From positions 1 through 60,448 of the forward strand of contig JAHQXB010000079.1 in the NCBI GenBank assembly GCA_029856435.1: DNA of 60,448 nucleotides, in the 5' to 3' direction. Below, piece by piece: positions 31,172 through 46,402 of this stretch. Both the position numbers and the translations under genes were made by a program. Each line of letters opens with the position of its first letter. Position 1 is the stretch's first letter. The notes beneath the pieces were generated by a model. The model made no database searches. It was not told where the DNA came from and saw nothing but the letters and a program-made list of their open reading frames with translations. Origin of the DNA: Candidatus Jordarchaeia archaeon. GTDB lineage: Archaea > Asgardarchaeota > Jordiarchaeia > Jordiarchaeales > Jordiarchaeaceae.

Positions 31172-31265
31172 CTTTTCTCCCGACCTTCAAATTCTTAATG
31201 ATTATGTTAACGCTGTATAGCTTTCTCGGTATGCATTAGTGGTATATGTGTTGAATGCTGAATTT

Positions 31266-32540
31266 TTAAGGGGGCTGTTCAATTTTTGCCTCAAATACAC
31301 ACCATTCATCTCCCCTTGCTATGCAATGAGTTTCATTACAAATCCACTTCTTCCCTGTAACTCCTTCTAAAATGCCAGCCAAAATGCTTCCAACTAACAC
31401 GCAAACTTTGCGATTGGATTTGCCATAGTAGTAGGATAGCGTCATGAAATTGTAAATCTTAAATTCTCCAGATTCTGGGCTTCCCTCCCTCTTGATTAGT
31501 CTTCCCCATCCTCGAATCAAGAAGTAATTAAGCGCTTCCCTCAGCAAATAACTCCCTTCTAAACCATACCTTGATTTGAAGAGATTTGTGACCTCCAAAC
31601 CCAACTTTCTACCAAAACTCTCCATAAATTTTTCATATTCATTTATCCCCAAAGTCTTTTCAAGTTCTTTAAACAATAATAGGAATGTACTCAGGGGAGT
31701 GATCAAAAACTCCCTATCATGAATTAAAATTTTTCCCTCCTCATAGGAAATACTTCTCTTAAAATCGTCAAAAACCGGAGCCAAAGCGGGAAGCTTCACG
31801 AAAGTATCATTGTAAAAAATATAAGCGTACCTCTGGTAGATATTAGGTGAGCCTGGCTCCAAAACTGGAGACTTTAATACGCGAATGTAGGGCTGTTTTA
31901 AGCCTCCCCCTTCTTCGGATCTGAGTTCTACTACAAAATCAGCCAAGTGTATCAGCGTATTTAGTGTCAGAGCATCGTGAATGTCGCGATTAACTAGTCC
32001 CGTGATAATGTCTCCCCATCGCTTCACATTTGCAGTTAACTTTCTAAACATTTTTAACACAGTTTTTGAGCCAAAATCAAGAATAGACGAGCTAAAATTT
32101 TGGTACAAAATTATGAGAGGTGTCTCTGGCAAAACATTTTTAATTTTTTCTCTCAAGTGACTGACTTCAAACAGAATCCTGTCAGGGTCATTTTCAATTC
32201 TGAATACGCCCTTTAAACTACTCGAACCTTTGTGAAAAACATTGTTTGGCGTTGTATCGAGATAATAACATTTGCCTTCATTAAAGGCCTGCCAAATAAA
32301 ATTAATATCCTCTGGCGAAAACCTTGTTTGAATATCTTCATTTATCATAGAGGATGGCAAACTTGTTCCTAACACGATACCCCCTCCTCCTTGTTTAAGG
32401 AAATTTATGCCAACAAGAAGGTTGAGAGTTATAGCATCATTTAAAGTGAACGAATCGCATATAAACAAAATTGAAGTGCCGCCAAATAACGCGCCTAGGT
32501 GCGCATCTATGAATTTCACTAAGGTTTTTTCAATCCTCAA
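31266..32540 (-). CDS. Degenerate KaiC/RecA-like domain + V4R (paralog 3)
   Basis: Same architecture; VCVLVGS.L.GILE..W.CNE.HC.ARG..WCVF. Confidence 0.7.
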   Translation of the reverse strand: MRIEKTLVKFIDAHLGALFGGTSILFICDSFTLNDAITLNLLVGINFLKQGGGGIVLGTSLPSSMINEDIQTRFSPEDINFIWQAFNEGKCYYLDTTPNNVFHKGSSSLKGVFRIENDPDRILFEVSHLREKIKNVLPETPLIILYQNFSSSILDFGSKTVLKMFRKLTANVKRWGDIITGLVNRDIHDALTLNTLIHLADFVVELRSEEGGGLKQPYIRVLKSPVLEPGSPNIYQRYAYIFYNDTFVKLPALAPVFDDFKRSISYEEGKILIHDREFLITPLSTFLLLFKELEKTLGINEYEKFMESFGRKLGLEVTNLFKSRYGLEGSYLLREALNYFLIRGWGRLIKREGSPESGEFKIYNFMTLSYYYGKSNRKVCVLVGSILAGILEGVTGKKWICNETHCIARGDEWCVFEAKIEQPP

Positions 32541-32589
32541 ACCTTATCCCTCATTTTATAACTTTTAACCTCTTGAAAGACGTATGGTT

Positions 32590-33867
32590 TTAAGCCACAA
32601 GTTTTAATTCGAATTTACACCTACTATTTCCCTTGGCGATACACTCTTTTTCATCGCAAGTCCAGTTCCGTAGGGAGATTTCTTCTAAGATTCCCTGTAG
32701 AACGCCACCTTCAATTATACAGACGGGATAATCAGATTTTCCATAATGGGCAGCAAAGTTAGAATAGCCTTCAACTATTATGCGTCCGGATTTAAGGCTT
32801 CCTTCGTAAATGTTAAATTTGCCCCAACCAGTAATTGAGAGGTGGTTTATTGCAGCTTTAAAAAGTTCTTTGTCAGTTAGCTTGAATCGGGAAGACAGGA
32901 TCTTTAAAATATGTGACCCTATAAGCCTGCCTACATTTTTTACTATTTTTGTATATTCGCTTCTTCCCAGTTTTTTCTCAATTTCTTTTAGGAGAATTGT
33001 GAAGGTGGGCATCTCTGCAATAATGTAATTTGTGTCGTAGGCTATTACTTCCCCTCTTTCAAGATAGGAGATGCTTGCCTTCAACTCTTCAAAGGATGTA
33101 GGAATAGTAGGGAGAATGTAAAAAGTGTCCTCGAAAAGTTCATATGTGAATTTTTTGTATAATATTTTCTTATTATCCACGGATAGGGGTGTTCTAGTTA
33201 CAGACACGTAGGGTTGCTTTTTGCCTTCGATAAGATCTACCCCAAATTCAAGTATATAATCAGCTAAGTGGGCGAGAGAATTAGCCACGCTCAGTTCTTG
33301 CATATCCCGATTAAAGATTCCCAGAAACAAATCACCATGTATTTTAACGTCTAATATCAATTTTCTTATCATACTTAAAACGACTCCTGGTTCAAAATCT
33401 AAAATCAGGTAGCTGATATTTGATTGCAAAATGAGAACTGGGGCATCTGAAAAATTCTTAATTTTATTTCTTGCATTTAGAATTTCATATAAAATTCTGT
33501 TGAGGTCGTTTACAACAGGCGTAACATACTCTGAATGATTAAGAGTAAAGTTACTAATATTATCCTCCAGCACAATGTTAATATAGTGTAATCTACCCTC
33601 ATTTGTCGCCTCTTGTAGAACGCGTCTTACTTCCGGAGAGCTGAAATATAATACATCTTTTATTGCCCAAGAGAAGGGCAAGTTTTCATAGACAAAAACG
33701 CAACCTCCACCATTTTTCAAAATATTTAACGCCACCAGGCTTGCCAATTTTTGAGCATCATTTGCAGTGTTTGAATCCGCTGAGAACAATATTGGAAAAC
33801 CCTGGTAAAGAACGCCCAGAGACTGATCTAGAAACTCTATTCCAATTTTTTTAATTTTCAAATCCAC
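32590..33867 (-). CDS. Degenerate KaiC/RecA-like domain + V4R (paralog 2)
   Basis: IEFLDQSLG start; VCIIEGG.LQGILE..W.CDEKEC.AKG..RCKF. Confidence 0.7.
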   Translation of the reverse strand: MDLKIKKIGIEFLDQSLGVLYQGFPILFSADSNTANDAQKLASLVALNILKNGGGCVFVYENLPFSWAIKDVLYFSSPEVRRVLQEATNEGRLHYINIVLEDNISNFTLNHSEYVTPVVNDLNRILYEILNARNKIKNFSDAPVLILQSNISYLILDFEPGVVLSMIRKLILDVKIHGDLFLGIFNRDMQELSVANSLAHLADYILEFGVDLIEGKKQPYVSVTRTPLSVDNKKILYKKFTYELFEDTFYILPTIPTSFEELKASISYLERGEVIAYDTNYIIAEMPTFTILLKEIEKKLGRSEYTKIVKNVGRLIGSHILKILSSRFKLTDKELFKAAINHLSITGWGKFNIYEGSLKSGRIIVEGYSNFAAHYGKSDYPVCIIEGGVLQGILEEISLRNWTCDEKECIAKGNSRCKFELKLVA

Positions 33868-33920
33868 CCCACCTTAAAGACGAAAAATTGAGAATCTATA
33901 AAAATTTATTCTTGCCTAAA

Positions 33921-35204
33921 TCATATTTGGGTCAATTCAAATTCACAATAATTATCGCCCATAGCAATGCACCTTATCTCTTTACTTGTCCACTTTTTTC
34001 CGGTAATTTCTTGAACTGCTCCCAGTAAACTGCCTTCGATTAATAAGTCCACAGGCTTGTCTGATTTGCCCCACAATTCAGCTAAAGAGGAGTGAACTCT
34101 GACTTTTAGAGTACCGGATTCTAAGCTTCCCTCAATGTTTAGCACTCTGCCGTAGCCTCTAGCACCGACATACATTAGAGTTGAATGCAAAAGGCGATCC
34201 TCTTTAAGATTAAACTCTGATTCGACAATTCTAACGCTCTTAGCCCCGAAATCTTTACCAAGCTCCATAACAATGTTTCTATAGCCATCATAGTCTATAC
34301 TTTTTTCAAAATTTAATAGAAGACTCGCTAGAAGTTGGGTGGGAAGCACGAGGTGTTTCGTTCCCAGTATTGAAATTTCACCATTTTGATAAAAAACTTG
34401 TCCGTCTTCCAACTCGTCTAGATAGAAAGATGCTGGTGAAAAGGTTTCAAACTTGTTTCCAGAAATGTGGTAAGCAATTTTTTTGTGCAAAAGCTTCCTA
34501 GCAAATCCAACTAAGGGTGTCTTAGACACTTGCAAATAGGGACGAGGTAAGTCTTCTTTAAACTCTAATCCAAACTCCATAGTATAGTTTGAAAAATGTT
34601 TCAGAGTACTTGTTATTTCCAGCTCATGAATATCCCTGTTTAACACACCAATGAAAATACCCCCGTTCTGCTTTATGTTTGATATCAATTTTTTAAACAT
34701 ATTTAAGGCAGCCTTGGAATCGAAATCAACCATAGTAGAGCTAATATTATGATACAAGAGAATAACTGGGCTTTCGGGAAAACTTGCTCTCATTTTTTCC
34801 ATCGCGCGATTAGCTTCATATAATATTCTATCTATATCATTCCTAACAAGTACCAGCCCCACCAAACCCTCAAAATTTTCACCAGAAGGAAATTTGTCAG
34901 ACACAAGATCCAAATACGTGAAACGCCCCTCATCCATCGCCTTTGTTAAAGCATGGTACTTATCAGGCAGAAACATATGCTTAAATTTTTTCGCGGCCAA
35001 ACTGTGGGGCTCATCCGTTTGAACAGCAACACAGGACAATCCCTGATCCATTAGATTAAAGGCCGCCAACATGCTGAGTAGCAAGGCATCATTTAACGTA
35101 GCAGAGTCAGCTATGAAGAGTAATACCTGACCTCCAGAAACGCCTCCCAGAGAAAAGTCTACAACCGGAATCCTAGTTTCAAACTCCAAAACCCAATCCC
35201 TCAA
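33921..35204 (-). CDS. Degenerate KaiC/RecA-like domain + V4R (paralog 1)
   Basis: IPVVDFSLGG start; V4R lacks two Cys (PVDLL, WTSKE) but keeps C.AMG..YCEF. Confidence 0.7.
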   Translation of the reverse strand: MRDWVLEFETRIPVVDFSLGGVSGGQVLLFIADSATLNDALLLSMLAAFNLMDQGLSCVAVQTDEPHSLAAKKFKHMFLPDKYHALTKAMDEGRFTYLDLVSDKFPSGENFEGLVGLVLVRNDIDRILYEANRAMEKMRASFPESPVILLYHNISSTMVDFDSKAALNMFKKLISNIKQNGGIFIGVLNRDIHELEITSTLKHFSNYTMEFGLEFKEDLPRPYLQVSKTPLVGFARKLLHKKIAYHISGNKFETFSPASFYLDELEDGQVFYQNGEISILGTKHLVLPTQLLASLLLNFEKSIDYDGYRNIVMELGKDFGAKSVRIVESEFNLKEDRLLHSTLMYVGARGYGRVLNIEGSLESGTLKVRVHSSLAELWGKSDKPVDLLIEGSLLGAVQEITGKKWTSKEIRCIAMGDNYCEFELTQI

Positions 35205-35363: not shown

Positions 35364-36524
35364 TTAATTTTTGGTAGGTTTTATTTTGATTCTTTTGGTT
35401 ATAACGTTTCCTTCGTTGTCTTCGAAGGACATTTGGAAACTTTGAACATTCTTTTCACGCAACTCATAGTTGAGTTCCACTTCTTTTCCCGTCGGCAACC
35501 TTTTTATTCCCAGCATATAAGGTGCTGTTTCGAATAGCTCCTCCTTTATGCCAACCACTTTAATGGTAACGCCCTTAAGCTCCTGTTTCGTATTGTTTGT
35601 CACATGTATGACTAGTTTCTCTTTTTCTTTTTGTTCCACCGAAACCTCTATTGATTGTGGTAACAGTTTCCCTTTTAATATATTCTGGGCTTTTGCCTCT
35701 TCAAACAACCCCGCCTCTTCCATGGGAGGTAATACAATGTTTATCGGTATCTGGAACTTAATACTTTCACCAGTAACCTTTATACATGTAATATCAAGGT
35801 ACCAGTGGGAGTAAGCGCCAAATGTCTGAGACCACTGAGTTCTTTCGGTGGGCTCCCAGAAGTAGTTATAGCTGTGTTCAGCGTACTGCGGCACCCTGAT
35901 GGATAAGTAGCCCCGCGTAGGATTTTTTTCCTCAACAGTGGTCAAAATCTCTGGAGGATTCTTTTTAATGTGGACGCAAACCTTTGCATATTTGGGACAG
36001 GAACAACTAATATTTGAGTCATTAACCAAGTCTACGGTTAATAGTTTTAATCCCTCAGTCTTATAATTCAGTTTAATTACTTCACCAGGTTGAACAGCGT
36101 CCTTTTCGATGTTAAAGCTCATCCCCTTAATAGTAAGAGAAACAGGATTAGGCTCAAATCTCTGTTCCGACCTTATTTTGATGGGTTTCTCTGAAACAAT
36201 CTTGAACGCCTCACCATACCTATCTAGTTTCCCCACAGAAAGGGAAGCCCTAATGAGGTAGTGGACATTTTTTCGTATAAGGGTGGGAACCGCCCTTCTG
36301 CTTACAGAGAGCTCACGTTCTCTAACATAAGTTCCACTCTCAAGAAAGCCCTCACAGAATACCTCACTTGAAGATAAGGGAAGCTCGTTTCCACAGGGCA
36401 AGTTAGTGAGAAGAGTAACTCCACCCCACCAAACCTTTGTATCCTCAGCTAGGTCAAACTTGGTTACTGTTCTTATGGAAGAACCAGCCACTGCAAAATC
36501 TCTTGCGCGTAACTCTATCGACAT
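35364..36524 (-). CDS. Arrestin/Vps26-fold-like protein with a C-terminal beta module
   Basis: Two beta-rich lobes (GTY..E.EL.V...VPT...VHYLIRA and IEKDAVQPGEVI...LSIRVP...WYLDI), a CxC-x6-CxH insert and the shared C-terminal module. Confidence 0.5.
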   Translation of the reverse strand: MSIELRARDFAVAGSSIRTVTKFDLAEDTKVWWGGVTLLTNLPCGNELPLSSSEVFCEGFLESGTYVRERELSVSRRAVPTLIRKNVHYLIRASLSVGKLDRYGEAFKIVSEKPIKIRSEQRFEPNPVSLTIKGMSFNIEKDAVQPGEVIKLNYKTEGLKLLTVDLVNDSNISCSCPKYAKVCVHIKKNPPEILTTVEEKNPTRGYLSIRVPQYAEHSYNYFWEPTERTQWSQTFGAYSHWYLDITCIKVTGESIKFQIPINIVLPPMEEAGLFEEAKAQNILKGKLLPQSIEVSVEQKEKEKLVIHVTNNTKQELKGVTIKVVGIKEELFETAPYMLGIKRLPTGKEVELNYELREKNVQSFQMSFEDNEGNVITKRIKIKPTKN

Positions 36525-36565: not shown

Positions 36566-37480
36566 CTAGCCTTCAGCGTGAGCTCTAACCACAAGATCAG
36601 CGAACATGGACATGTCAGAAAGCAATGTATCAATCTTCTCCTGAGCTTTTTTATCCAATTCCTGAGTCTTCATTATCAACACTGCGATTATGAATTTGAA
36701 CACATGAAGCGAAATCTCCTTACCACCATCCAGTCCCCGTCCAGTGAATTCCGCCGATTCAGACATAAAGAAGTTTTCCCTCAAATTATTACAAGCACTT
36801 ATGAAATCCCTCAGGTCTCCCCTCAGCTGTAATCCCGTACTAACTCCCTGAACATTATGCACAATCACATTACCCGAGGTGTCGCTAATAATGATTCTGG
36901 CGGGAATTTCACTTAACTGTTTCTGGGCAGTTTCAACATGCTTCTCCAGAGACTTGTAACTCGCAACCAATATGTCCCGAAATATTTCAGCGAGTCTCTC
37001 CTGCTCATAAATGGAAGTCACATGAAAAGTAGGATTCCACCTAGAGAACAAATCTAGGAATATACTCTTAGCCTTTTCAAGATTCGTATCAAGAAGCTCC
37101 TTAACATAATCCTTCAGATCATACTTGTGGAAGAAAATGTGCACCGCTGGCTTAATATTATTCTTTGTGAACAGGTCTATAATCTGTTTAAAGTACTCCT
37201 TCGCAGCATCGAAACTTTCAGGCTCATGAAGATCCACAACTGGAATCAAAACATCCGTACCCTGAAACACCTTAGGGTCACTAATATAAGATTCTCTGTA
37301 CTGCTCCTGACCACCAAAGTCAAAAATGGAAACCTCCAAGCCCAAAAAGGGATGCCTCCTAATCTCATACATAATAGTTGGAGCTGCGCCCACAGTCTGT
37401 TCAGGTTTTTTGCCAGCGAACGTTGTCAGATATATACTAGTTTTCCCACATCCTGAAAGTCCAACCAATGAGATTTTCAA
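36566..37480 (-). CDS. Rag/Gtr-type small GTPase with a C-terminal roadblock/longin-like domain
   Basis: GLSGCGKT (G1), PT (G2), DFGGQ (G3), HKYD (G4) and TSIYE (G5). HKxD and TSI are Rag-family hallmarks; ~120-aa alpha/beta C-domain. Confidence 0.8.
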   Translation of the reverse strand: MKISLVGLSGCGKTSIYLTTFAGKKPEQTVGAAPTIMYEIRRHPFLGLEVSIFDFGGQEQYRESYISDPKVFQGTDVLIPVVDLHEPESFDAAKEYFKQIIDLFTKNNIKPAVHIFFHKYDLKDYVKELLDTNLEKAKSIFLDLFSRWNPTFHVTSIYEQERLAEIFRDILVASYKSLEKHVETAQKQLSEIPARIIISDTSGNVIVHNVQGVSTGLQLRGDLRDFISACNNLRENFFMSESAEFTGRGLDGGKEISLHVFKFIIAVLIMKTQELDKKAQEKIDTLLSDMSMFADLVVRAHAEG

Positions 37481-37531: not shown

Positions 37532-39049
37532 TTATTCCGTTTTCTTACTCTCACCCAACTTTTTACCCTCGATTTCCTTTACACTAAGTTTCTGAGACAG
37601 AATAGTTCCCTGTCTATCAGAAATAGTCAACAAGTATTCCCTATCATCCTTAACCCGAGGATAACAAAATTCAAGCTCATCAAAAGGATACCATGTCTCA
37701 ATCTCAGTCTCCCAAGCGTTACTCTCAAACAAATCCTCCAAATGGGCAATCCTCACCTTAATATCATTTATGGGTTTCCCCGAATTATTCGCTAAAGTTA
37801 TCTGAAGCATAGTCCCACCATCAACAAACCGAGCATCCGAAACCTTCAGCAACTTCTGAAGAGCACGCTCAGTTATACCTGCCTTTGCCTCTGCTTTCTC
37901 CTCAACCAAAGGTATTGCCCCCCGCCGTTCCAAAGGTTCAGGAACCCCAGCCACTGTCGGAACATATTTCAAAACATAGGTTTGGCGTCTCCTCTCAGTG
38001 TACATTTGCACCTTCTTCAACCTCGCTAGATTCAACACCTTCTGCAAACCATCCCTATCCAAAGGCTGCAAAGTTAAATAACCATCCTCCATAGCATCCT
38101 CAAGAAGTTCATTAGCCACACCACTACGCACCAGAATAGTTGAATACCCATCAGGAGACCCAACACTCCCCACAGAGATGTCAGCCAACTCCGAAGTAAG
38201 ATCCCTACAATAATGACAACTTGTCGAACGATACTTATCAAGATCCTTTACCGGCCAACCAGCAGTCTTGTCACCATCATAAATTATGTTAAATTTGCCA
38301 GCAGATATGCTCATTTTACTGATGGAACTTAAAGGTATTCCCTGCTTCACCTCAAAGAACTCCTTCAAACCATCATGATAGAAGGAGTCCATACAGAACA
38401 GCCCCACCTTTAATATCTTCACCTTCATAAACAAGTGGAGCAAACCGAAAGGCTGCATCTGCATCTTAGCCACCGCATCTATATTACAAGGAGTACCCAC
38501 AAAAGCAATGGAACGATACCCCTTATCAATCGCCTCAACCAAAGCCTCAACAGTCCTACTGTGAGAATAAACACTACCAGAAGACTTTAAAATATCCTCA
38601 GAACTCGTAGCTATCTTTGCAACGGGCTTCCAAGGCTCCCTCTCATCCTTCTGAGTAACTATAGCCGCATCTATCAAACCATGATCCATAGCATACAATA
38701 GGAGGGAGGTTACAACCCCACCATCCTGACCCTTAACCTTATCTATCGCTGATTTGCCAACAAAAGCCGCGATGTAATCTCCAATCAAGGACTTCAGAGA
38801 AGTTATGGTTCTGGGACACGCACGGTAGCATATGCCACAAGCGCTGCATTTTCCAACTAATTTGGGTGTTTCGTCTTCCATCACGAGAGCCTTCTCGGGA
38901 CAAACTGAGACACAGGTGCAGCATGCTGTACAGACGCCGCTTCTTATAACTTCTTGATTTAGGCGTCCAAAGTTTTCAAGTTTTTTCACTTTTAAGAGTC
39001 TTTCGGGAAACGTGTAGCTTACGTATCCTTTTTCCTCCTCGTTTAACAT
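37532..39049 (-). CDS. FrhB-like Fe-S/flavin protein fused to a C-terminal beta module
   Basis: CTACCTCVSVCP and CSACGICYRACP, QDGGVVT, GTPC, GLFCM, CHYCRD..ADISVGSVGSP; then a linker and an ~80-aa module shared with 35364-36524 and 41463-42509. Confidence 0.8.
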   Translation of the reverse strand: MLNEEEKGYVSYTFPERLLKVKKLENFGRLNQEVIRSGVCTACCTCVSVCPEKALVMEDETPKLVGKCSACGICYRACPRTITSLKSLIGDYIAAFVGKSAIDKVKGQDGGVVTSLLLYAMDHGLIDAAIVTQKDEREPWKPVAKIATSSEDILKSSGSVYSHSRTVEALVEAIDKGYRSIAFVGTPCNIDAVAKMQMQPFGLLHLFMKVKILKVGLFCMDSFYHDGLKEFFEVKQGIPLSSISKMSISAGKFNIIYDGDKTAGWPVKDLDKYRSTSCHYCRDLTSELADISVGSVGSPDGYSTILVRSGVANELLEDAMEDGYLTLQPLDRDGLQKVLNLARLKKVQMYTERRRQTYVLKYVPTVAGVPEPLERRGAIPLVEEKAEAKAGITERALQKLLKVSDARFVDGGTMLQITLANNSGKPINDIKVRIAHLEDLFESNAWETEIETWYPFDELEFCYPRVKDDREYLLTISDRQGTILSQKLSVKEIEGKKLGESKKTE

Positions 39050-39331
39050 TTACCTGTCTCCTTTCGCTTCAGTTTCTACAGTTTCTGGACGTAAGTCAGG
39101 TCTTCAAACAGTGTAGGGTTATAGTAGGTATCTTTCAATTTGTTCCAGAGTTATAGTTGGAATTATATTACCGTCAAGTATATAAATTTTTTAGAAGACC
39201 TTAGACTTACGTTCTATAATCTTGTGAGCTTCAATAGTACAGTTTTTTGCGTATTTAATACTTTTTCGATTGTGAAGAATTTTGAGAAAATTGTTGGTTT
39301 ATGACGAAAAGCGTCCATATTTCTTCCATTT

Positions 39332-41407
39332 TTACATTTTTTGAGTGGAATCCGATGGTTGTTCTTCTTTTGGGGGCCACTCAAAAATAACCACAGTTAA
39401 ACAGATGAGGAAGGGCATGAAGGATAAGAAAATCTGCAGGTACTGAGAGTTCCCAAAGGGAATAATTCCCACCATTAGAACTGTGGGGTTTAATTCAGAG
39501 CTTTGAACACATATCCTTTGGGCGTCAGAGATGGTCTGATAGCCTTGAGAGTCTATCGCGCAGGCATAAAATACTATGCTGTGATTGTTGAAATAGGAGG
39601 AATCTATGGTAAAGCTGTGACTGGGGGCTAGCATTGGCGTTGAATTGATAATTACTTTATGATAGTCTGTAACCACTATTTCTAGACTGATTATTCCTTG
39701 GGGGTCGCTGCAAGAGATGTTGATTGTAAATTGTTCTCCGGGGCTGATGCTTGTGGGGGCGTTGATGTTGAAGATGGTGGGTTTGTCTGGTGTAGAGCCT
39801 ACTTCTAGGATTGTGGTGTTATAGAGATGGTTGGGTTTGGTTACTGTGATATTATATTTGCCAGTTGTGGGCGCTGGGATTTTTATTCGGCCTTGAGAGT
39901 CGGTGAGGTAAGTGTGATAATATTCTGTTCCTTGTATGCATATTAGGGCGTTGCTCACTGGGCGTCCTCCGCTGTTTTGGATTCTAATCTGCATTATTTG
40001 GCCCGGTGTGGGTGTGTATTCTGGTAGAATGATGCTTAAGTTTTGCGGGATGTTGGTCCATATGGGGAGCTCTGGGTCTCCTAGTAGGATGTATTCAAAG
40101 AATTCCTGTCTGTATATGCTGTTTTCAGCCATTCTAAATAGGCCCACCTTCTGGTAGTACTCCTGTTTACTTTGGTATAGGGCATAGCCAGCGCGTTGGG
40201 AAAAAAGGCCGTCATCAGTGTGGAGGAGTATTTCAAAGAATAATGCGTCCAGAAGAGAATCTGATAAATCATTAATGTTGTCTCCACCATAACTTGTTCT
40301 GGTAGCTCCAATATAGGATATTGCTCCACCATCTGGGTTCTTTAACATAGCCTCACCTAAGCAATCCCCTGCATAGTCTAGACGTGCTGTTGAGCAGGCC
40401 GAAGCAAAAACTAGGGGCAACCTATAACTGTTATTTGAACTCGAAGCATAAGTGGAGTCATAGTAACTGCCGGAGCTTTCAGATCGGTAAACTGAAGTGG
40501 GGGAACCGTGCGAGCATAGGTTGACTATTGCGCATCCATTGTTTATTGCATTTCTAAAATTGTCTAAAGTTAAATTGGTATAACTGCGGATGGAGTCGTA
40601 AAATAGAGTGGTAAAGTTCATGTTTAGATCTTTGGGGAAAATATAGTCTCGGATGTAGTTTTTGATTCGCCATCCCTGAATGTTTCCGCTCTGGCTTAGT
40701 TGGCCTCCCGCGAAAACAGCCATTTGCATCCAGTCCCCGATATAGTTGGCTATTTCTATTTCGTAGGTAAGTATCTTGTTTATCATGTCTTCAAGCTCGG
40801 TTATGTTTGAGGCTGGAAGTCTTCCAACGTATAGTTCTGGAATCCAATCTATCTCGCCAAATTCCCCGTATAACTCATTTCCATTATTGTCAAAGGTTCC
40901 ATTCAGAGCGGCGTAGTAATAGTCGCTTGGTACATTGTCCAGTCCAGTCCAAAAGTATCTTGTGGGAATTATGCTGACGTCGCCTGCCAGTAGGACCCAG
41001 CGAATATTCCACTGATTGTATGCGTCTATCAGAAAGTTGCGTAATTTTGATTGATTGTCGTTTCCGGGATAGTTTTCGTAGATGTAGGTTGTGTTGAATA
41101 TGGTTGCGGGTATTCCTTTTTGTGTTTTCCATTCCGCAAATTGGACTAGGTGGGGGTTGTTGGCCCATTCTGGGGGGGCTATTATTATGTACTGTGTGGT
41201 GTTTGTTTTAAGAATTAGTGGCGTGGGGATGTCTTGTATTTGTAGGGCTTGCTGGTTTTGTGAGATAACTGTGGGTATCCAAGTGTTGGGTGCGGGGAGG
41301 AGTAGAAGTGTGGCTCCTAGGGTTATCAGGAGTATTAGGAATCCAAGCTTTATGAGTGAATTTCTCAATGTGAACACTCCTATTTCTGGAAATGGGGGAA
41401 TCCTCAA
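39332..41407 (-). CDS. Secreted, membrane-anchored C25 (gingipain-family) cysteine peptidase
   Basis: N-terminal signal/TM; YIIIAP, VLLAGD..IIP, SDYYY, VGRLPA, catalytic HG (CSHGS) and SACS, LLGDP; Ig-like region and C-terminal TM helix. Confidence 0.85.
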   Translation of the reverse strand: MRIPPFPEIGVFTLRNSLIKLGFLILLITLGATLLLLPAPNTWIPTVISQNQQALQIQDIPTPLILKTNTTQYIIIAPPEWANNPHLVQFAEWKTQKGIPATIFNTTYIYENYPGNDNQSKLRNFLIDAYNQWNIRWVLLAGDVSIIPTRYFWTGLDNVPSDYYYAALNGTFDNNGNELYGEFGEIDWIPELYVGRLPASNITELEDMINKILTYEIEIANYIGDWMQMAVFAGGQLSQSGNIQGWRIKNYIRDYIFPKDLNMNFTTLFYDSIRSYTNLTLDNFRNAINNGCAIVNLCSHGSPTSVYRSESSGSYYDSTYASSSNNSYRLPLVFASACSTARLDYAGDCLGEAMLKNPDGGAISYIGATRTSYGGDNINDLSDSLLDALFFEILLHTDDGLFSQRAGYALYQSKQEYYQKVGLFRMAENSIYRQEFFEYILLGDPELPIWTNIPQNLSIILPEYTPTPGQIMQIRIQNSGGRPVSNALICIQGTEYYHTYLTDSQGRIKIPAPTTGKYNITVTKPNHLYNTTILEVGSTPDKPTIFNINAPTSISPGEQFTINISCSDPQGIISLEIVVTDYHKVIINSTPMLAPSHSFTIDSSYFNNHSIVFYACAIDSQGYQTISDAQRICVQSSELNPTVLMVGIIPFGNSQYLQIFLSFMPFLICLTVVIFEWPPKEEQPSDSTQKM

Positions 41408-41462: not shown

Positions 41463-42509
41463 TTATTCCATTTCTTTTATTGAGATTCTTTTTACTAGTA
41501 GTTTGTTGGTTCGGTCTTCTATTTTTAGGATGTATTCGCCGTTGTTGTCGACTCGGGGATATTGGAATACTAGTTCTTCGTAGGGGAACCAGATTTCTAC
41601 TGTTGTGTCCCAGGAGTAGGTTTCAAAAAATTCTTCGATGTGAGCGATGGATATTTTTATGTTTTCCAGTCCTTTTTCAGAGTTGTTCTTGACGGTTATT
41701 TTTAGTTTTTTCTTGTTATCGGTGAATTCTACGCCCACCAGTTCTATGGGGCTTTCGGGAATGTGCTCGATGGCTCTGGTTTCTATGGCGCTTTTTCCGG
41801 ATAGCGGGACAGACCTGGTTTGGGGGCCACTTAAACCGTAAATGTTGCTGAGAAGGAAGTATATTAGGTTTCTCTGTTTCTCCACATCGCTCTGTAGGGC
41901 CTCCATTAATTCTGACGATATTATTGGTATGGATATCTCGCATATGTTCAGGAGATTATTTTCGATTTCTTCCCCTTCCTTAATAATTTTGTTATCTTCT
42001 TGGGTTCTTATAGGTTTGCAACGAGCCAAATCCTTCTCTATTAAGAGGTAAAGCTTGTCCTGCAAGCTCTCTCTGATTTTCTGAAGTATAACGCTGAGCA
42101 ACTTATCTCCTAAAGGTTTAGCTAAACCCACGGGTACACTGATTATGAGAACAAAAACCTCCTCTGTCTCAGGAGACATACCTGCCCTTTGTTTTTCCCT
42201 AGCTGACTTCGCCTTAAACTTCGTGGCGGCATAAACCTTCCCCCCAAACTCCAAATCCACGCGGTTCAGCCCCTCTTTGAAATCGTCTGCTCCCAGCCAC
42301 CAGACAGGATGCTTCTGAATAATTCTCAGCGTCTCCAAATCATTCTTAAGACTCTCTGGGCATGTAAATAGGGCAAGATGTCCTTTGGTTTCGTGAAAGT
42401 AGCACAGGTAAATGCCAATCAAACCCTCTAAAATATTTGGGTGTCGCTCTTCCTTCTTTTGTTGAAATTCTAGACCCTTAATTACATTATCATCCGAATT
42501 TTTAGACAT
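41463..42509 (-). CDS. uDENN/longin (NPRL2/FLCN-like) protein with a C-terminal beta module
   Basis: IYLCYFHETKGHLALFTCPE resembles the uDENN first hairpin (I....F....G..+.+..PE); Arg-rich loop KSAREKQRAG; shared C-terminal module. Start moved to MSKNS. Confidence 0.55.
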   Translation of the reverse strand: MSKNSDDNVIKGLEFQQKKEERHPNILEGLIGIYLCYFHETKGHLALFTCPESLKNDLETLRIIQKHPVWWLGADDFKEGLNRVDLEFGGKVYAATKFKAKSAREKQRAGMSPETEEVFVLIISVPVGLAKPLGDKLLSVILQKIRESLQDKLYLLIEKDLARCKPIRTQEDNKIIKEGEEIENNLLNICEISIPIISSELMEALQSDVEKQRNLIYFLLSNIYGLSGPQTRSVPLSGKSAIETRAIEHIPESPIELVGVEFTDNKKKLKITVKNNSEKGLENIKISIAHIEEFFETYSWDTTVEIWFPYEELVFQYPRVDNNGEYILKIEDRTNKLLVKRISIKEME

Positions 42510-42617
42510 CTTAACGCACCAGAGAGTCTGGTAAAACAGTAAAGGATTCATTTTTCAGAGCAATCTTAATCTCTCGGTTCAAGAGTAGAAGTTTGGAAGT
42601 TAGTTAATTAATTTTTC

Positions 42618-43190
42618 TTAAACTCTTTTTTCAGCTGTATCCTTAGGTTGTAACTGGATCTCGTAATACCGTGTGTATTTTTTGAATTGGTTAACCCATT
42701 TTTTACTAATGACGCCCACAATCTGTCCCTGTTTATTAACAACTCCGACCCGCTTCACTTTAGTTTTGTCAAAGAGGGCTCTTAACTCGTCCATAGAAAC
42801 GTCCTCGCTCACCGTTATGATATCTCTAACCATCACATCTCCCGCTTTATAAATTCGGGGATCCTTCTCCTTAGCCACCAAACGGAATATGACTCCATCT
42901 GTGATTATTCCAACAACCTTGTCGTTATCATCTTTTACGAATACTGAGCTTATCCAGTTATCCACCATTAGTTTTGCTACTTTGGGCAGGGAATCGTTGA
43001 CATGACAGGTTATCACGTCACGACTTGCGGCGTTGACTATTGAGAATTTTTCCTTATCTTCAGTTGACAATGTTTCCACCAAATTTTTATGAATCCATCT
43101 GTTGATACCTTTTTTGATTAGGCTTTTATACTTTTTTAATGTGCTAACAGGACTAAATTGTTCTTGTGTGTCTAGGGATGCAAAAGGCAC
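42618..43190 (-). CDS. CBS-domain pair protein
   Basis: VAKLMVDNWISSVFV...VVGIITDG..FR and VGVV...IVGVIS; start uncertain. Confidence 0.85.
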   Translation of the reverse strand: MPFASLDTQEQFSPVSTLKKYKSLIKKGINRWIHKNLVETLSTEDKEKFSIVNAASRDVITCHVNDSLPKVAKLMVDNWISSVFVKDDNDKVVGIITDGVIFRLVAKEKDPRIYKAGDVMVRDIITVSEDVSMDELRALFDKTKVKRVGVVNKQGQIVGVISKKWVNQFKKYTRYYEIQLQPKDTAEKRV

Positions 43191-43433
43191 TGTTTTGTGT
43201 AGTTTTTTGTTTTTTCACCCTTTTTATTAATTTGCGTAATTTATTCATATTTTTGGAGGTTTTCAATTAAAGAGCAATGTTAAAAAGGAAAATTGTGCAA
43301 ATGGGGCAGCGTTATTGGTAAATAAATATTTGATATTTGCATTCGCCTTTTGGGAAGGATGACGGTAGATAGAGTTAAAATTGTTTTTTGGCTAGGTAGA
43401 ATTTAATTGAGGACTGTTTTAGAGGTTGTGGAA

Positions 43434-44801
43434 ATGGTATTAAAGCACCAGTACATATCAGCAACCGAGAAAGATAAGAAGGCTATGTTAGACGAACTCG
43501 GTATCAGAAGCGTTGAGGAACTATATAGGGATATACCGAAAAAAATTAGGTTGAATAGGCCACTGGACCTTCCCAGCCCGCTGGTGGAGGCTGATTTGAA
43601 GCAGTTTATTGAGCAGATGATGGATAAGAATGTTACACATAAGGATATGCCTGTTTTTTTGGGCTCGGGGGTCTGGCTTCACTACGTTCCAGCAGTGGTA
43701 AGGTCGCTGGCTTTTCTTCCAGAATTTTTAACTTCCTATACTCCCTACCAGCCGGAGGTTTCTCAGGGAATCCTTCAAGCTTTGTTCGAGTATCAAAGTA
43801 TGATCTGTGAGATTACAGGTATGGATGTGGCTAATGCTTCTATGTATGATTGGGCATCCGCGCTTGGTGAGGCTGCATTAATGGCGGGGAGAGTAACCAG
43901 AAGGGAGGAAATTTTAATACCTAAGATAATTCATCCCGAAAGAAAAGCCACACTTGAAACATATACGCATAACATAATGAGTTTTAAAGAGATTCCTTAT
44001 GACGCGGAGACAGGAACCATCGACGTCAACGCTTTGAACAATATGATTTCTGAGAAAACTGCAGCAGTATATGTAGAGAACCCAAACTATTTTGGTGTGA
44101 TGGAACATGAAGTTGCCGAAATTAGCGGTATAGCTCACGAAAACGGCGCCTTATTTATGGTGGGTGTAGATCCTACTTCTTTGGGCGTTCTTGCGCCACC
44201 AGGAGAATATGGTGCGGATATCGTGATTGGAGAGGGACAACCCCTTGGCGTTGACCCATCTTTTGGGGGCCCCTTGATTGGACTATTTGCCTGTCGAGAT
44301 GACAAGGCGTTAATAAGAAATATGCCCGGAAGACTCATTGGTATGACTGAGGACGCACGGGGAAATCGCTGTTTTACAATAACCTTGCAGACCCGAGAGC
44401 AACACATTCGCAGAGAGAAGGCCACAAGTAATATCTGCTCTAATGAGGCACTTTGCGCAGTTCAGGTGGCAATATATCTTGCTTGCGTGGGACCAAACGG
44501 GCTGGCCCAGCTGGGAGAGACCTGTATGGCCAACGCTAAATACGTGATGAAAAAGATAAATGAAATAGAAGGATTTACTGCACCGATATTTCATTCGCCT
44601 CATTTCAAGGAATTTACAGTTAAATCTCAGAGATCTGCAGAGGAGGTTCACAGAATGCTGTTGGATAGAGGGGTACATGGAGGTAAAATCATTAAAAATG
44701 AGTTCCCAGAGCTTGGAGAAGCTAGCCTCTACAGCGTAACTGAGATCCACAGCCTCGAAGATATGGAAAAATTGTTAGAAGCTCTCACAGAAATCGCGTA
44801 G
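43434..44801 (+). CDS. gcvPA: Glycine dehydrogenase (decarboxylating) subunit 1
   Basis: TSYTPYQPEVSQG, NASMYD and REQHIRREKATSNICSNE. Confidence 0.95.
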   Translation: MVLKHQYISATEKDKKAMLDELGIRSVEELYRDIPKKIRLNRPLDLPSPLVEADLKQFIEQMMDKNVTHKDMPVFLGSGVWLHYVPAVVRSLAFLPEFLTSYTPYQPEVSQGILQALFEYQSMICEITGMDVANASMYDWASALGEAALMAGRVTRREEILIPKIIHPERKATLETYTHNIMSFKEIPYDAETGTIDVNALNNMISEKTAAVYVENPNYFGVMEHEVAEISGIAHENGALFMVGVDPTSLGVLAPPGEYGADIVIGEGQPLGVDPSFGGPLIGLFACRDDKALIRNMPGRLIGMTEDARGNRCFTITLQTREQHIRREKATSNICSNEALCAVQVAIYLACVGPNGLAQLGETCMANAKYVMKKINEIEGFTAPIFHSPHFKEFTVKSQRSAEEVHRMLLDRGVHGGKIIKNEFPELGEASLYSVTEIHSLEDMEKLLEALTEIA

Positions 44802-44857
44802 TTCAAGATAGGAGGTTAAGGGAAGAAACAGTGTTTGTGGTTTGAGGAGGTTATGAA

Positions 44858-46402
44858 ATGTCTGAGGGATTTAAACAAGCTATCTGGAAGGAAAAAGAGA
44901 AGGTGCTGGAGCCACTCATATTTGAGATAAGTGTACCGGGTAGAGTTGGACATATTTTGCCCAAGGCTTGTGACAAAGTTCTTAGAGAAGTTGGAGATGT
45001 GCTGAAAAGTATTCCGGAAAAAATCAGGAGAAAAACTCCAGTCAATCTGCCTGAGGTATCAGAAATACAGTTAACTAGGCACTATCTCCATCTCGCCCAG
45101 ATGAACTATGCGGTGGATTTAGGTTTTTACCCTCTGGGTTCCTGTACAATGAAGTACAATCCAAGGATAAATGAAGAAATAGCCAGAATGGACAAGATTT
45201 CAAGACTTCACCCATATCAAGACGCCTCTACGGTTCAGGGAGCCTTGGAGTTGCTCTACCGTTTAGAAAAAATACTCGCAGAAATCTCGGGAATGGCACG
45301 GGTTACCTTGCAACCTTCTGCGGGGGCTCATGGAGAACTAACCGGCCTCTGTATAATAAGAAAATACCATGAAGATAAGGGAGAAATTCAGAATAGAAGG
45401 GAAATAATTGTACCAGATTCGGCTCATGGAACCAACCCTGCGAGTGCTAATATGGCTGGTTTTAATGTAGTGACAATTCCATCCTCCAAAGAGGGCTGTG
45501 TTGACCTAGAAGCCCTAAGAGCCATAGTGGGGAAACAAACAGCGGGCCTTATGCTTACCAACCCTAACACGCTGGGCATATTTGAGGAGGACATACTGGA
45601 AATTTCACACATTATTCATAATGTTGGTGGCCTCCTATACTATGATGGAGCTAACTTGAACGGAGTTTTGAATAAGGTTAGACCGGGAGATATGGGGTTT
45701 GACATTGTTCACTTCAATCTGCATAAAACCTTTTCTACGCCTCATGGTGGAGGAGGCCCAGGCGCGGGACCAGTAGGAGTAAAGGAGGAGTTGGTTCCCT
45801 ATCTACCGATACCCACGATCGAGTACGACGAGAAGAAGGGCATTTACTACTTGGAGTATGATAGGCCTAAGTCCATAGGAAAGATGAAGGGGTTCTACGG
45901 GAACTTCGGGGTAATCGTCAAAGCTTACTCCTACATTCTTTCACTTGGAGCTAAGGGATTAAATGAGGTCGCTGAGGTTGCGGTTCTTAATGCCAATTAC
46001 TTGGCAAAAAAAATTAGTGAAATACCCGGATTCGGTCTCCCCTACGCTGAAAAGCCTCGTAAGCATGAGTGCGTGATAAGCGCCGCAAAACTGAAGGCTG
46101 AAACTGGCGTCACCGCATTTGACGTAGCGAAAAGAATACTGGATTTTGGGATACACGCACCAGTTGTTTACTTTCCCCAGATAGTTGAGGAGGCACTAAT
46201 GATTGAGCCAACAGAAACTGAAACTAAGGAAAACTTAGACACTTTTGTTTCGGTGATGAGAAAGATATCCAGCGAAGCCTATGGTGAAAAAGAAAAGGTT
46301 CTGAACGCCCCCCATAATACCTCAGTGGGCAGAGTGGATGAGGTTAGAGCAGCCAGAAAACCAATACTGAGTTGGAAAATGTATCAGAAATATAAAAGTT
46401 AG
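44858..46402 (+). CDS. gcvPB: Glycine dehydrogenase (decarboxylating) subunit 2
   Basis: YPLGSCTMKYNP, AHGTNPASA and NLHKTFSTPHGGGGPG (PLP Lys). Confidence 0.96.
   Translation: MSEGFKQAIWKEKEKVLEPLIFEISVPGRVGHILPKACDKVLREVGDVLKSIPEKIRRKTPVNLPEVSEIQLTRHYLHLAQMNYAVDLGFYPLGSCTMKYNPRINEEIARMDKISRLHPYQDASTVQGALELLYRLEKILAEISGMARVTLQPSAGAHGELTGLCIIRKYHEDKGEIQNRREIIVPDSAHGTNPASANMAGFNVVTIPSSKEGCVDLEALRAIVGKQTAGLMLTNPNTLGIFEEDILEISHIIHNVGGLLYYDGANLNGVLNKVRPGDMGFDIVHFNLHKTFSTPHGGGGPGAGPVGVKEELVPYLPIPTIEYDEKKGIYYLEYDRPKSIGKMKGFYGNFGVIVKAYSYILSLGAKGLNEVAEVAVLNANYLAKKISEIPGFGLPYAEKPRKHECVISAAKLKAETGVTAFDVAKRILDFGIHAPVVYFPQIVEEALMIEPTETETKENLDTFVSVMRKISSEAYGEKEKVLNAPHNTSVGRVDEVRAARKPILSWKMYQKYKS

Follow-up and report, generated by a model that had tools for sequence, protein, structure and literature searches.

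The window analysed here, a stretch of 60,448 nucleotides from a Candidatus Jordarchaeia contig (JAHQXB010000079.1), encodes a ferredoxin–FrhB protein with an Ig-like tail, FrhB-beta, which is tied to a Rag-family GTPase both by conserved gene order and by a tail domain held in common with two other proteins of the GTPase cluster. The most likely reading, which we advance tentatively and from sequence comparison, is that FrhB-beta would serve as the redox input of a Rag-like GTPase switch.

FrhB-beta has a complete ferredoxin and FrhB core

FrhB-beta consists of an N-terminal extension, a 2x[4Fe-4S] ferredoxin domain, FrhB_N, FrhB_C, a linker and the Ig-like module, in that order, and its orthologues across Asgard lineages are full-length at 477–515 aa. 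The gene and its parts are as follows.

37532–39049 (−): FrhB-beta gene, ATG start, 505 aa (ORF list and translation, Pfam, orthologues)
38951–39049 (−): family-specific N-terminal extension, residues 1–33 (alignment A1)
38792–38947 (−): ferredoxin domain, residues 35–86 (Pfam Fer4 families)
38540–38764 (−): FrhB_FdhB_N domain, residues 96–170 (Pfam, E 1.1e-22)
38057–38515 (−): FrhB_FdhB_C domain, residues 179–331 (Pfam, E 1.2e-42; same coordinates in the genome scan)
37877–38047 (−): basic helix (KKxQxYT.RRR), then a variable charged and Pro-rich linker (alignment A1)
37565–37876 (−): C-terminal Ig-like beta-sandwich module, copy 1 (profile match, E 8e-40; AF2 model)

Both FrhB domains lie above their curated cut-offs, FrhB_N (PF04422) with 80.3 bits against 22 and FrhB_C (PF04432) with 145.8 bits against 23.3. 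Fer4-type dicluster families match residues 35–81, where eight cysteines are arranged in two CxxCxxCxxxC-type motifs, for two [4Fe-4S] clusters; all eight (C40, C43, C46, C50, C68, C71, C74 and C78) are invariant across 43 FrhB-beta orthologues in alignment A1. The same orthologues retain the GQDGG motif (residues 107–111), identical in the aligned Fsr (7np8), and C188, C219, C278 and C281, which align with identical cysteines of Fsr. The assignment of GQDGG to FAD and of the four FrhB-domain cysteines to a [4Fe-4S] cluster is made via published structures.

Outside this core, L19, K23, F27 and L30 of the N-terminal extension are nearly invariant, and the alignments of Fsr and ACDS zeta to FrhB-beta begin only at around residues 26–31. 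Within the basic helix K345, K346 and Y350 are invariant and R355 nearly so, after which the columns of A1 become gapped and variable. About one third of linker residues ~345–404 are K, R, E or D, and the linker differs in length among orthologues. The sequence-only reading of this gene had described a complete ferredoxin plus FrhB domain, fused through a charged linker to a beta module, and the Pfam matches, the eight ferredoxin cysteines and the linker composition bear this out. The best explanation, offered with reserve, is that FrhB-beta forms a cofactor-complete, working F420-type flavo-iron-sulfur module, its use of F420 being assumed from homology. Of the genes for F420 biosynthesis, the genome has two cofE, cofD and cofH.

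The GTPase operon and its neighbours

The genes around FrhB-beta that concern us are listed below.

36566–37480 (−): Rag-family GTPase, 304 aa, TTG start (Pfam Gtr1_RagA, 7.6e-20)
35364–36524 (−): arrestin/Vps26-like protein, 386 aa, ending in module copy 3 (35367–35693; profile 2e-26)
39179–39186 (−): TTTATATA box, preceded by an A-run, in the 282-bp spacer (read from the sequence)
39332–41407 (−): Peptidase_C25 gene, between the longin and FrhB-beta genes (Pfam, 5.9e-68)
41463–42551 (−): NPRL2-like longin protein, 362 aa, ending in module copy 2 (41466–41780; profile 3e-38)
42618–43190 (−): CBS-pair protein, 190 aa (Pfam CBS, 1.6e-20)
28421–29854 (+): Hdr/MvhD-linked FrhB paralogue, 477 aa (36% identity to FrhB-beta, E 6e-67)

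The FrhB-beta stop codon and the TTG start of the GTPase are separated by 51 bp, and a further 41 bp separates the GTPase from the arrestin-like gene, all on the minus strand. Upstream of FrhB-beta, a 282-bp AT-rich spacer intervenes before the Peptidase_C25 gene and contains the TTTATATA box, which, from its apparent likeness to the consensus, may be regarded as a candidate archaeal TATA/BRE of the operon. FrhB-beta thus stands first in the GTPase operon, with the peptidase gene upstream and the GTPase downstream in place of an adjacent catalytic partner, and the second FrhB paralogue lies in the Hdr cluster; on all three points the earlier reading was right.

The GTPase carries HKYD at the G4 position and has a conserved C-terminal domain (alignment A3). 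In a profile search of the PDB its top match was the 'GTP-binding protein' chain of 8yl2 (3.6e-28), followed by Gtr1 and RagA at 1e-21. The identity of the 386-aa protein is a lead from atlas feature matches to arrestin/Vps26 clusters. For the longin protein, whose true start is perhaps at 42509, the AF2 model of the N-terminal part has a mean pLDDT of 75.5, and its best Foldseek matches were SEA complex and GATOR1 chains, followed by other longin domains, with weak scores (E 2.6e-4 to 1e-2, TM about 0.3). The CBS-pair gene is co-clustered in families f1, f2 and f21 (8 loci) and Peptidase_C25 occupies this place in families f1 and f2 only (5 loci). Four V4R paralogues downstream (29900–35204) occur in family f1 only and lie outside the conserved core.

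A rare Ig-like tail marks the GTPase cluster

A genome profile search with the tail module (~100 aa) found exactly three copies in the 97.8%-complete genome, all inside 7 kb: in FrhB-beta (E 8e-40), the NPRL2-like longin protein (3e-38) and the arrestin-like protein (2e-26). In alignment A2 the FrhB-beta tail shares 41% identity with the C-terminal end of the longin protein and 17% with that of the arrestin-like protein; BLASTP against the latter tail aligned 79 residues at 22% identity (E 8e-6). The beta module had indeed been described as shared before these comparisons were made.

The AF2 model of the module has seven strands (pLDDT 86), and the fold search returned generic Ig-like and FN3-like sandwiches only, the best Z (9.9) being to glycosidase domains. 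Weak matches to RhoGDI, UNC119 and a BBSome chain (E ~3e-3, TM 0.4–0.5; Z 8.8) are taken as a fold-level coincidence and not as a sign of GTPase binding. A complex predicted from the GTPase (A3) and the tail module (A2) scored 0.19, against a mark of 0.32, and counts neither for nor against an interaction.

An unbiased library search of 1.84 billion proteins, on which our census of the module is based, recovered 94 representatives, and FrhB was the only enzyme family detected on it. A module-profile search for longer proteins gave almost only FrhB-beta orthologues, because they dominate the profile. All GTPase-linked copies of the module, as well as those of the longin and arrestin-like proteins, retain an E-E/D-L-F-E loop motif; other residues take its place in the Atabey lineage, which is without the GTPase.

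Conservation across Asgard genomes

Of the sampled Asgard genomes, 45 encode both FrhB-beta and the Rag-like GTPase, and in 39 of these, spread over five families, the two genes are direct neighbours, although the genomes are akin and such counts overstate independence. In 36 of these pairs the genes share a strand with FrhB-beta upstream, and three are convergent. The FrhB-beta proteins of the five families are only 45–60% identical to the 505-aa protein described here. The association is not strict: three Atabey-type genomes, two of them single-contig, encode FrhB-beta without a GTPase orthologue or any other module carrier, one f21 genome (G101) likewise lacks the GTPase but encodes FrhB-beta, and the reverse, a GTPase with no FrhB-beta, is seen in ten genomes.

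Across 21 loci from six Asgard families, neither hydrogenase, formate dehydrogenase, Fpo nor sulfite reductase genes were a conserved neighbour of FrhB-beta, and CODH/ACS and Fwd genes were not found within about 9 kb of it. An HdrA-MvhD-FrhB cluster lies less than 10 kb away in f1, f2, f18 and part of f9, which makes a metabolic partner possible.

Relatives of FrhB-beta

The nearest solved relatives of FrhB-beta are all F420 enzymes: the N-terminal half of Fsr (3e-59), FrhB (4e-49), ACDS zeta (9e-48) and FwdI (3e-40). Bit scores against solved chains, used as a proxy for a labelled FrhB/FdhB/FpoF/HCAR tree, fall from 204 for the Fsr N-half through 171 for FrhB, 166 for ACDS zeta and 141 for FwdI to 61 for FdhB and 42 for HCAR. 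Besides the Hdr-linked paralogue, the genome holds two more distant FrhB_C genes on other contigs. FrhB-beta and the Hdr-linked paralogue fall in separate clades with 98% ultrafast bootstrap each, and we therefore rejected the reading of FrhB-beta as a recent copy of that paralogue. FrhB-beta itself forms one clade (support 98/93), which fits a single fusion event; its sister clade, in family f7, is a stand-alone Fd-FrhB protein without module or GTPase.

A scan of the genome for NiFe large subunits found one group-3-type locus (HdrA-MvhD-MvhG-MvhA) and one NuoD-like gene on a 5.8-kb contig; neither is near FrhB-beta, and FrhA/FrhG genes were not found. We rejected FrhB-beta as the beta subunit of an Frh hydrogenase on the lack of an FrhA/G-type locus. 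It was likewise rejected as half of a split Fsr, as NIR_SIR (PF01077) has no match in the 97.8%-complete genome or in FrhB-beta itself.

Among characterized proteins, Fsr gives the best sequence match, its F420H2-oxidase N-half (7NP8) aligning over residues 31–357 (E 2.9e-59) with identical GQDGG and four proximal-cluster cysteines and a co-positioned ferredoxin domain (10.1101/2022.04.07.487323); FrhB-beta lacks the siroheme sulfite reductase half. FrhB of the F420-reducing [NiFe] hydrogenase (3ZFS/4OMF, 6QGR) belongs to the same FrhB_N + FrhB_C fold family (E 4e-49 to 3e-48). ACDS zeta (8RIU_B) and FwdI (8RJA_E) are plug-in F420-reductase subunits of Ca. Ethanoperedens thermophilum, in which a ferredoxin domain is followed by an FrhB-type domain with FAD and one [4Fe-4S] cluster and by a short C-terminal extension (PMC11493965). 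FrhB-beta aligns with them over residues 30–348 (8riu_B, E 9e-48) and 26–347 (8rja_E, E 3e-40), and adds the N-terminal extension, the long linker and the Ig-like tail. These subunits have CO dehydrogenase or formylmethanofuran dehydrogenase as docking partners, but no such genes lie nearby here, and the conserved neighbours of FrhB-beta are the GTPase, arrestin-like and longin proteins. FpoF/FqoF likewise join a ferredoxin part to an FrhB part, and the soluble form of FpoF reportedly catalyses ferredoxin:F420 oxidoreduction unaided (PMC9012536). By analogy, FrhB-beta could do the same alone, and the absence of a neighbouring partner is therefore not evidence for a sensor.

Redox input, regulated enzyme or complex subunit

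If FrhB-beta is the redox input of the switch, electrons would be expected to follow the path F420H2/F420 <-> FAD <-> [4Fe-4S] <-> 2x[4Fe-4S] <-> ferredoxin or another Fe-S partner. The Ig-like domain would dock FrhB-beta, the arrestin-like protein and the longin protein on a common platform, and the redox charge of F420 or ferredoxin, read by the flavin and the clusters, would bias regulation of the GTPase, possibly by way of the longin GAP-like protein. Against this reading, the full cofactor set is no less fitting for an ordinary enzyme than for a sensor, FrhB-beta and the GTPase each occur without the other (in the three Atabey-type genomes and G101, and in ten genomes, respectively), and the f7 sister clade stands alone without a GTPase.

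The invariant ligands, the F420 genes, the GTPase-less Atabey-type genomes and the f7 clade together indicate that the redox core is probably autonomous, as an FpoF-like ferredoxin:F420 oxidoreductase or a plug-in reductase, and was recruited to the GTPase set. The earlier proposal that this FrhB copy was repurposed to report redox state to the GTPase rather than run a catabolic reaction thus holds in part. It is separate from the Hdr-linked paralogue, has no adjacent partner, and is linked to the Rag-like GTPase set through a private domain and through adjacency across deeply diverged families; yet with all 12 cysteines and GQDGG invariant there is no sequence sign of a loss of catalysis. The persistence of FrhB-beta without the GTPase in Atabey-type genomes and the stand-alone f7 relatives likewise speak against a sensor in place of an enzyme.

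Information could also run in the opposite direction. A possible though somewhat doubtful account is that FrhB-beta is an autonomous ferredoxin:F420 oxidoreductase, which the GTPase set recruits, positions or switches via the tail, so that the GTPase controls redox flux. Arrestin and Vps26 are adaptor-type proteins in eukaryotes, and the arrestin/Vps26-like neighbour bears the same tail. The intact, invariant cofactor set, the relatives that stand alone without a GTPase (families f13 and f7) and the reported capacity of soluble FpoF to carry out Fd:F420 oxidoreduction alone (PMC9012536) also favour regulated output. However, FrhB-beta opens the operon and shares a transcript with the switch, as would befit a stoichiometric partner whichever way the signal runs. 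In eukaryotes, the metabolic proteins that associate with the Rag/GATOR machinery are sensors, a consideration that counts against an output role by analogy only.

We consider it unlikely that FrhB-beta is instead an plug-in F420 reductase or oxidase subunit of a catabolic complex with genes elsewhere or close by, for example HdrA-MvhD, docking through its N-terminal ferredoxin domain as ACDS zeta and FwdI do, with the GTPase link reflecting co-regulation only. Its Fd + FrhB architecture is that of these subunits, which are anchored through the ferredoxin domain (PMC11493965); the HdrA/MvhD/FrhB cluster is within 10 kb in the families named above, and Atabey-type genomes keep FrhB-beta without the GTPase. 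The Hdr operon, however, already includes an FrhB paralogue that belongs to a separate clade, no catalytic neighbour recurs across families, and FrhB-beta keeps closer to the GTPase, and over a wider range of families, than to Hdr. A subunit role also leaves unexplained a tail held in common only with two non-redox proteins of the GTPase cluster. That the adjacency and the shared tail are functionally meaningless, the product of gene hitch-hiking and a generic Ig-like fold, is hardly credible. The beta-sandwich is generic, matching unrelated glycosidase domains best, and co-occurrence of FrhB-beta and the GTPase is not strict, but the three tails are homologous in sequence (up to 41% identity), are confined in this genome to the GTPase cluster and belong to a module rare among 1.84 billion proteins, and the gene pair is adjacent in 39 of 45 genomes with both genes, over five families.

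Implications for Rag-type switches

Like the eukaryotic Rag/Gtr systems (GATOR1/SEACIT NPRL2-NPRL3, FLCN-FNIP), the Asgard set combines a Rag-family GTPase with a weakly NPRL2-like longin protein and a metabolic-type protein. The likeness, known here from genes, is one of logic, with sensors feeding a Rag switch, and not of membership: neither the FrhB protein nor the shared tail has a eukaryotic counterpart and, unlike in the eukaryotic Rag switch, TOR kinase has no part in the Asgard set. In the literature we found no published link of an FrhB protein to an Asgard Rag GTPase and no description of the module.

Asgard small-GTPase genes generally lie outside operons with their regulators, and their partners are hard to assign (PMC10933270). 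Here, a private domain singles out a defined and conserved group of candidate partners for one Rag-family GTPase, and these include a redox enzyme, the state of which can be both imposed and monitored in vitro. Should FrhB-beta turn out to be merely a tethered enzyme, a non-enzymatic GTPase assembly would be a new class of partner for FrhB-type modules. If the link is functional, a eukaryote-type switch would be joined to anaerobic energy metabolism (F420, ferredoxin, Hdr) in a lineage related to the ancestor of eukaryotes, providing a model for Rag-like GTPases before TOR. On the gene evidence, a GTPase related to the eukaryotic nutrient switch may be coupled to the redox chemistry of the cell. 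It is conceivable, albeit far from assured, that a Rag-type switch reads the F420/ferredoxin redox charge via a dedicated flavo-iron-sulfur subunit whose private Ig-like domain docks it next to a GAP-like longin protein and an arrestin-like adaptor. If true, nutrient sensing by Rag/GATOR would have a prokaryotic forerunner that senses reducing power as its 'nutrient'.

Domain layout and neighbours of FrhB-beta

We analysed the ferredoxin-FrhB protein FrhB-beta (P0001) together with the genes around it.

37532-39049, minus strand: FrhB-beta, 505 aa, from the ORF and its translation
36566-37480, minus strand: GTPase, 304 aa
35364-36524, minus strand: arrestin-like protein, 386 aa
41463-42551, minus strand: longin protein, 362 aa
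42618-43190, minus strand: CBS-pair protein, from Pfam

Pfam places dicluster ferredoxin matches at residues 35-81 of P0001, FrhB_FdhB_N at residues 96-170 (E 1.1e-22) and FrhB_FdhB_C at residues 179-331 (E 1.2e-42). The eight ferredoxin cysteines, GQDGG (107-111), C188, C219, C278 and C281 are invariant in 43 orthologues. Both domains are complete, as the sequence-only reading had held. A conserved basic helix follows FrhB_C, then a variable charged/Pro-rich linker (residues ~357-403), which leads, as had also been proposed, into the C-terminal ~100 residues, where Pfam has no match. An AT-rich spacer of 282 bp containing a TTTATATA box lies 5' of the gene. Downstream, on the same strand, are the GTPase gene, separated from FrhB-beta by 51 bp, and then the 386-aa gene, separated from the GTPase gene by 41 bp. 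This order agrees with the sequence-only reading, which put FrhB-beta at the head of the GTPase operon.

Pfam assigns the 304-aa protein to the Rag-family GTPases (Gtr1_RagA, 7.6e-20). The profile of this GTPase matched 8yl2 ('GTP-binding protein') best among solved structures, followed by Gtr1/RagA (E ~1e-21), RagC/Gtr2 and Arf/Arl, and alignment places HKYD, the Rag-type HKxD variant of NKxD, at the G4 position. For the 386-aa protein, the protein atlas offers arrestin/Vps26 as a lead. Modelling of the N-terminal region of the 362-aa protein with 12 orthologues gave a mean pLDDT of 75.5, and Foldseek ranked SEA complex and GATOR1 chains best, then other longin domains, with weak scores (E 2.6e-4 to 1e-2, TM about 0.3). 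This gives a fold-level lead to an NPRL2-like longin, in line with those reported in Asgard archaea (10.1101/2020.10.19.343400).

Between the longin and FrhB-beta genes lies a gene (39332-41407, minus strand) for a gingipain-type Peptidase_C25 protein that also has a CarboxypepD_reg-like domain; of the sampled families, f1 and f2 alone have it at this place. Divergent from the CBS and longin genes is a split glycine-cleavage P protein (adjacent GDC-P and GcvP2_C genes, 43407-46402, plus strand), an arrangement which recurs in the same-genus genome G038.

A rare module shared by three neighbours

The shared beta module of the sequence-only reading was borne out. In A2, the alignment of module copies, the FrhB-beta tail shows 41% identity with the C-terminal end of the 362-aa protein and 17% with that of the 386-aa protein (BLASTP for the latter: 22% over 79 residues, E 8e-6). 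A profile of 23 copies, searched against the whole genome (3.54 Mb, 97.8% complete), matched three ORFs only (505, 386 and 362 aa), all inside 7 kb. Among 1.84 billion representative proteins it occurs in only 94, nearly always C-terminally. Of the 51 such proteins of at least 200 aa, Pfam assigns FrhB to seven, CBS to one and Arrestin_C to one; the others have no Pfam match, and many of them measure ~310-360 or 375-395 aa. We conclude that the module is genuine and rare, and that it is confined to the GTPase/FrhB-beta gene set. AlphaFold2 predicts a seven-stranded Ig-like sandwich (pLDDT 86), with which fold searches returned generic sandwich matches and nothing else; the predicted fold indicates nothing specific about function.

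The representative library includes a 641-aa protein, P0222, in which the module is internal, at residues 252-345. The single CBS match among the 51 scanned proteins is strong (4.8e-47) and probably belongs to P0222, pointing therefore to further module architectures in other lineages.

Conservation across Asgard genomes

Full-length orthologues span 477-515 aa with 44-87% identity, tail included, under the source names Frey-, Jord-, Hel-, Heimdall-, Hod-, Odin-, Thor-, Hermod-, Loki-, Njord- and Atabeyarchaeia, which are labels on metagenome bins. Named database proteins with 100% identity give f1 the label Freyarchaeota and f13 the label Atabey, and show f9 to be of Loki type. Among 201 genomes of the phylum, which are related and so do not count as independent events, FrhB-beta is essentially full-length in 48 and partial at a contig end in two more (six families), and the orthologous GTPase is present in 55 (five of those six families). 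FrhB-beta of other families is only 45-60% identical to P0001. Both genes occur in 45 genomes and are directly adjacent in 39, with FrhB-beta upstream on the same strand in 36 and the pair convergent in three; of the other six genomes, three have 1.3-4.2 kb between the two genes and three have them on separate contigs of fragmented assemblies. The arrestin-like gene comes next in f1, f2, f18 and most f9 loci, and longin and CBS genes join the cluster in f1, f2 and f21; the f18 locus has the longin gene as well.

FrhB-beta occurs without the GTPase in one f21 genome and in three f13 genomes (two single-contig), which have no GTPase orthologue at E <= 1e-50. In each of these f13 genomes the tail module is single-copy, and its E-E/D-L-F-E loop motif, conserved in the other copies, is replaced. 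The reverse case, a GTPase gene but no FrhB-beta, is found in ten genomes, six of f21 and four of f9.

Several loci have features of their own. In one orthologous Rag-like GTPase gene (L035:11737-12639, genome G025, f18), codon 6, in the P-loop region, is an in-frame TAA; the gene may be a pseudogene, its start may be mis-called, or the stop may be a sequencing error. In f9 loci (e.g. L043:10529-12139, neighbour cluster 13) FrhB-beta is closely preceded, in the same orientation, by a gene for a ~535-aa HEAT-repeat protein, whose match to mTOR_dom is weak and sub-threshold (E 3e-4). At L036:6288-9547 (f21, in Heimdall-labelled genomes) a further pair of redox genes adjoins the module genes, divergent from longin, CBS and FrhB-beta: one encodes a 609-aa protein (Pyr_redox_2 + DHODB Fe-S), the other a GltD/NfnB-like protein (Fer4_20 + Pyr_redox_2).

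Relatives of the FrhB core

We compared FrhB-beta with solved structures. The nearest is the F420H2-oxidase half of Fsr (2.9e-59), in whose aligned sequence the cysteine ligands and GQDGG are identical, followed by FrhB (4e-49 to 3e-48) and the ethane-oxidiser subunits ACDS zeta (9e-48) and FwdI (3e-40), with FdhB (5e-16) and HCAR (4e-10) well behind. Both of these subunits, ACDS zeta and FwdI, share the ferredoxin-FrhB layout and serve as plug-in F420 reductases; in ACDS zeta it is the ferredoxin domain that anchors the subunit to its partner (PMC11493965). The genome carries F420 biosynthesis genes (two cofE, cofD, cofH). Neither a sulfite reductase domain nor an FrhA/G-type hydrogenase was found in it, its sole group-3 locus being HdrA-MvhD-MvhG-MvhA.

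Immediately after that operon (contig C43 of G000, L051:776-7222, HdrA of 663 aa) come a gene for a small GTPase of the Ras family (6063-6578, Pfam Ras 7e-8) and an ORF of 183 aa that Pfam does not match. This is a second case in this genome of redox and GTPase genes side by side.

In a maximum-likelihood tree of the ferredoxin-FrhB core, tail-bearing proteins form one clade (98/93), and Hdr-linked paralogues a separate one (98/94) that includes the second copy at 28421-29854, correctly recognised from the sequence. The sister of the tail-bearing clade (100/100) comprises f7 proteins of 349-365 aa without tail or GTPase orthologue, whose genes adjoin GTP cyclohydrolase II and NTPase genes, again with no catalytic partner.

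Around the f7 genes (L070:6145-6870, L071-L073), the gene for GTP cyclohydrolase II, an enzyme of riboflavin/deazaflavin precursor synthesis, is divergent in four of six loci, and an NTPase_1 gene lies downstream in three. The paralogue at 28421-29854 (plus strand) has a ~110-aa region ahead of its ferredoxin domain with weak TrmB and HTH_20 matches (E 4e-3 and 8e-3).

Sensor or enzyme

The sequence-only reading had argued from the missing partner gene to a sensor rather than an enzyme. The observation holds, no catalytic neighbour beside FrhB-beta being conserved across families; the step to a sensor does not follow, because soluble FpoF is reported to act alone as a ferredoxin:F420 oxidoreductase (PMC9012536). 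That FrhB-beta provides redox input to the GTPase switch is still the reading we tentatively prefer, at rather less than even probability. The FpoF precedent speaks for an alternative in which FrhB-beta is an enzyme that the switch recruits or controls, an alternative that we consider somewhat unlikely. That the FrhB core has a function of its own is also argued by the sister clade without the tail and by the Atabey copies, whose genomes have no orthologue of the GTPase. In f1, f2, f18 and part of f9, an HdrA-MvhD-FrhB-paralogue cluster no more than 10 kb away would suit a catabolic-complex subunit with only a regulatory link to the GTPase, but the lack of a neighbour kept across families makes this improbable. 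A meaningless linkage is very improbable, and other readings share the remainder.

Our literature search found no published link between an FrhB-type protein and an Asgard Rag GTPase, and in the cultured Asgard strain MK-D1 small-GTPase genes generally lie outside operons with their regulators (PMC10933270). The sequence comparisons support FrhB-beta as a putative working F420-type redox module, tagged in one Asgard clade with what would be a private docking domain and kept beside a Rag-family GTPase, with the same tag on the predicted longin GAP-like and arrestin-like proteins.
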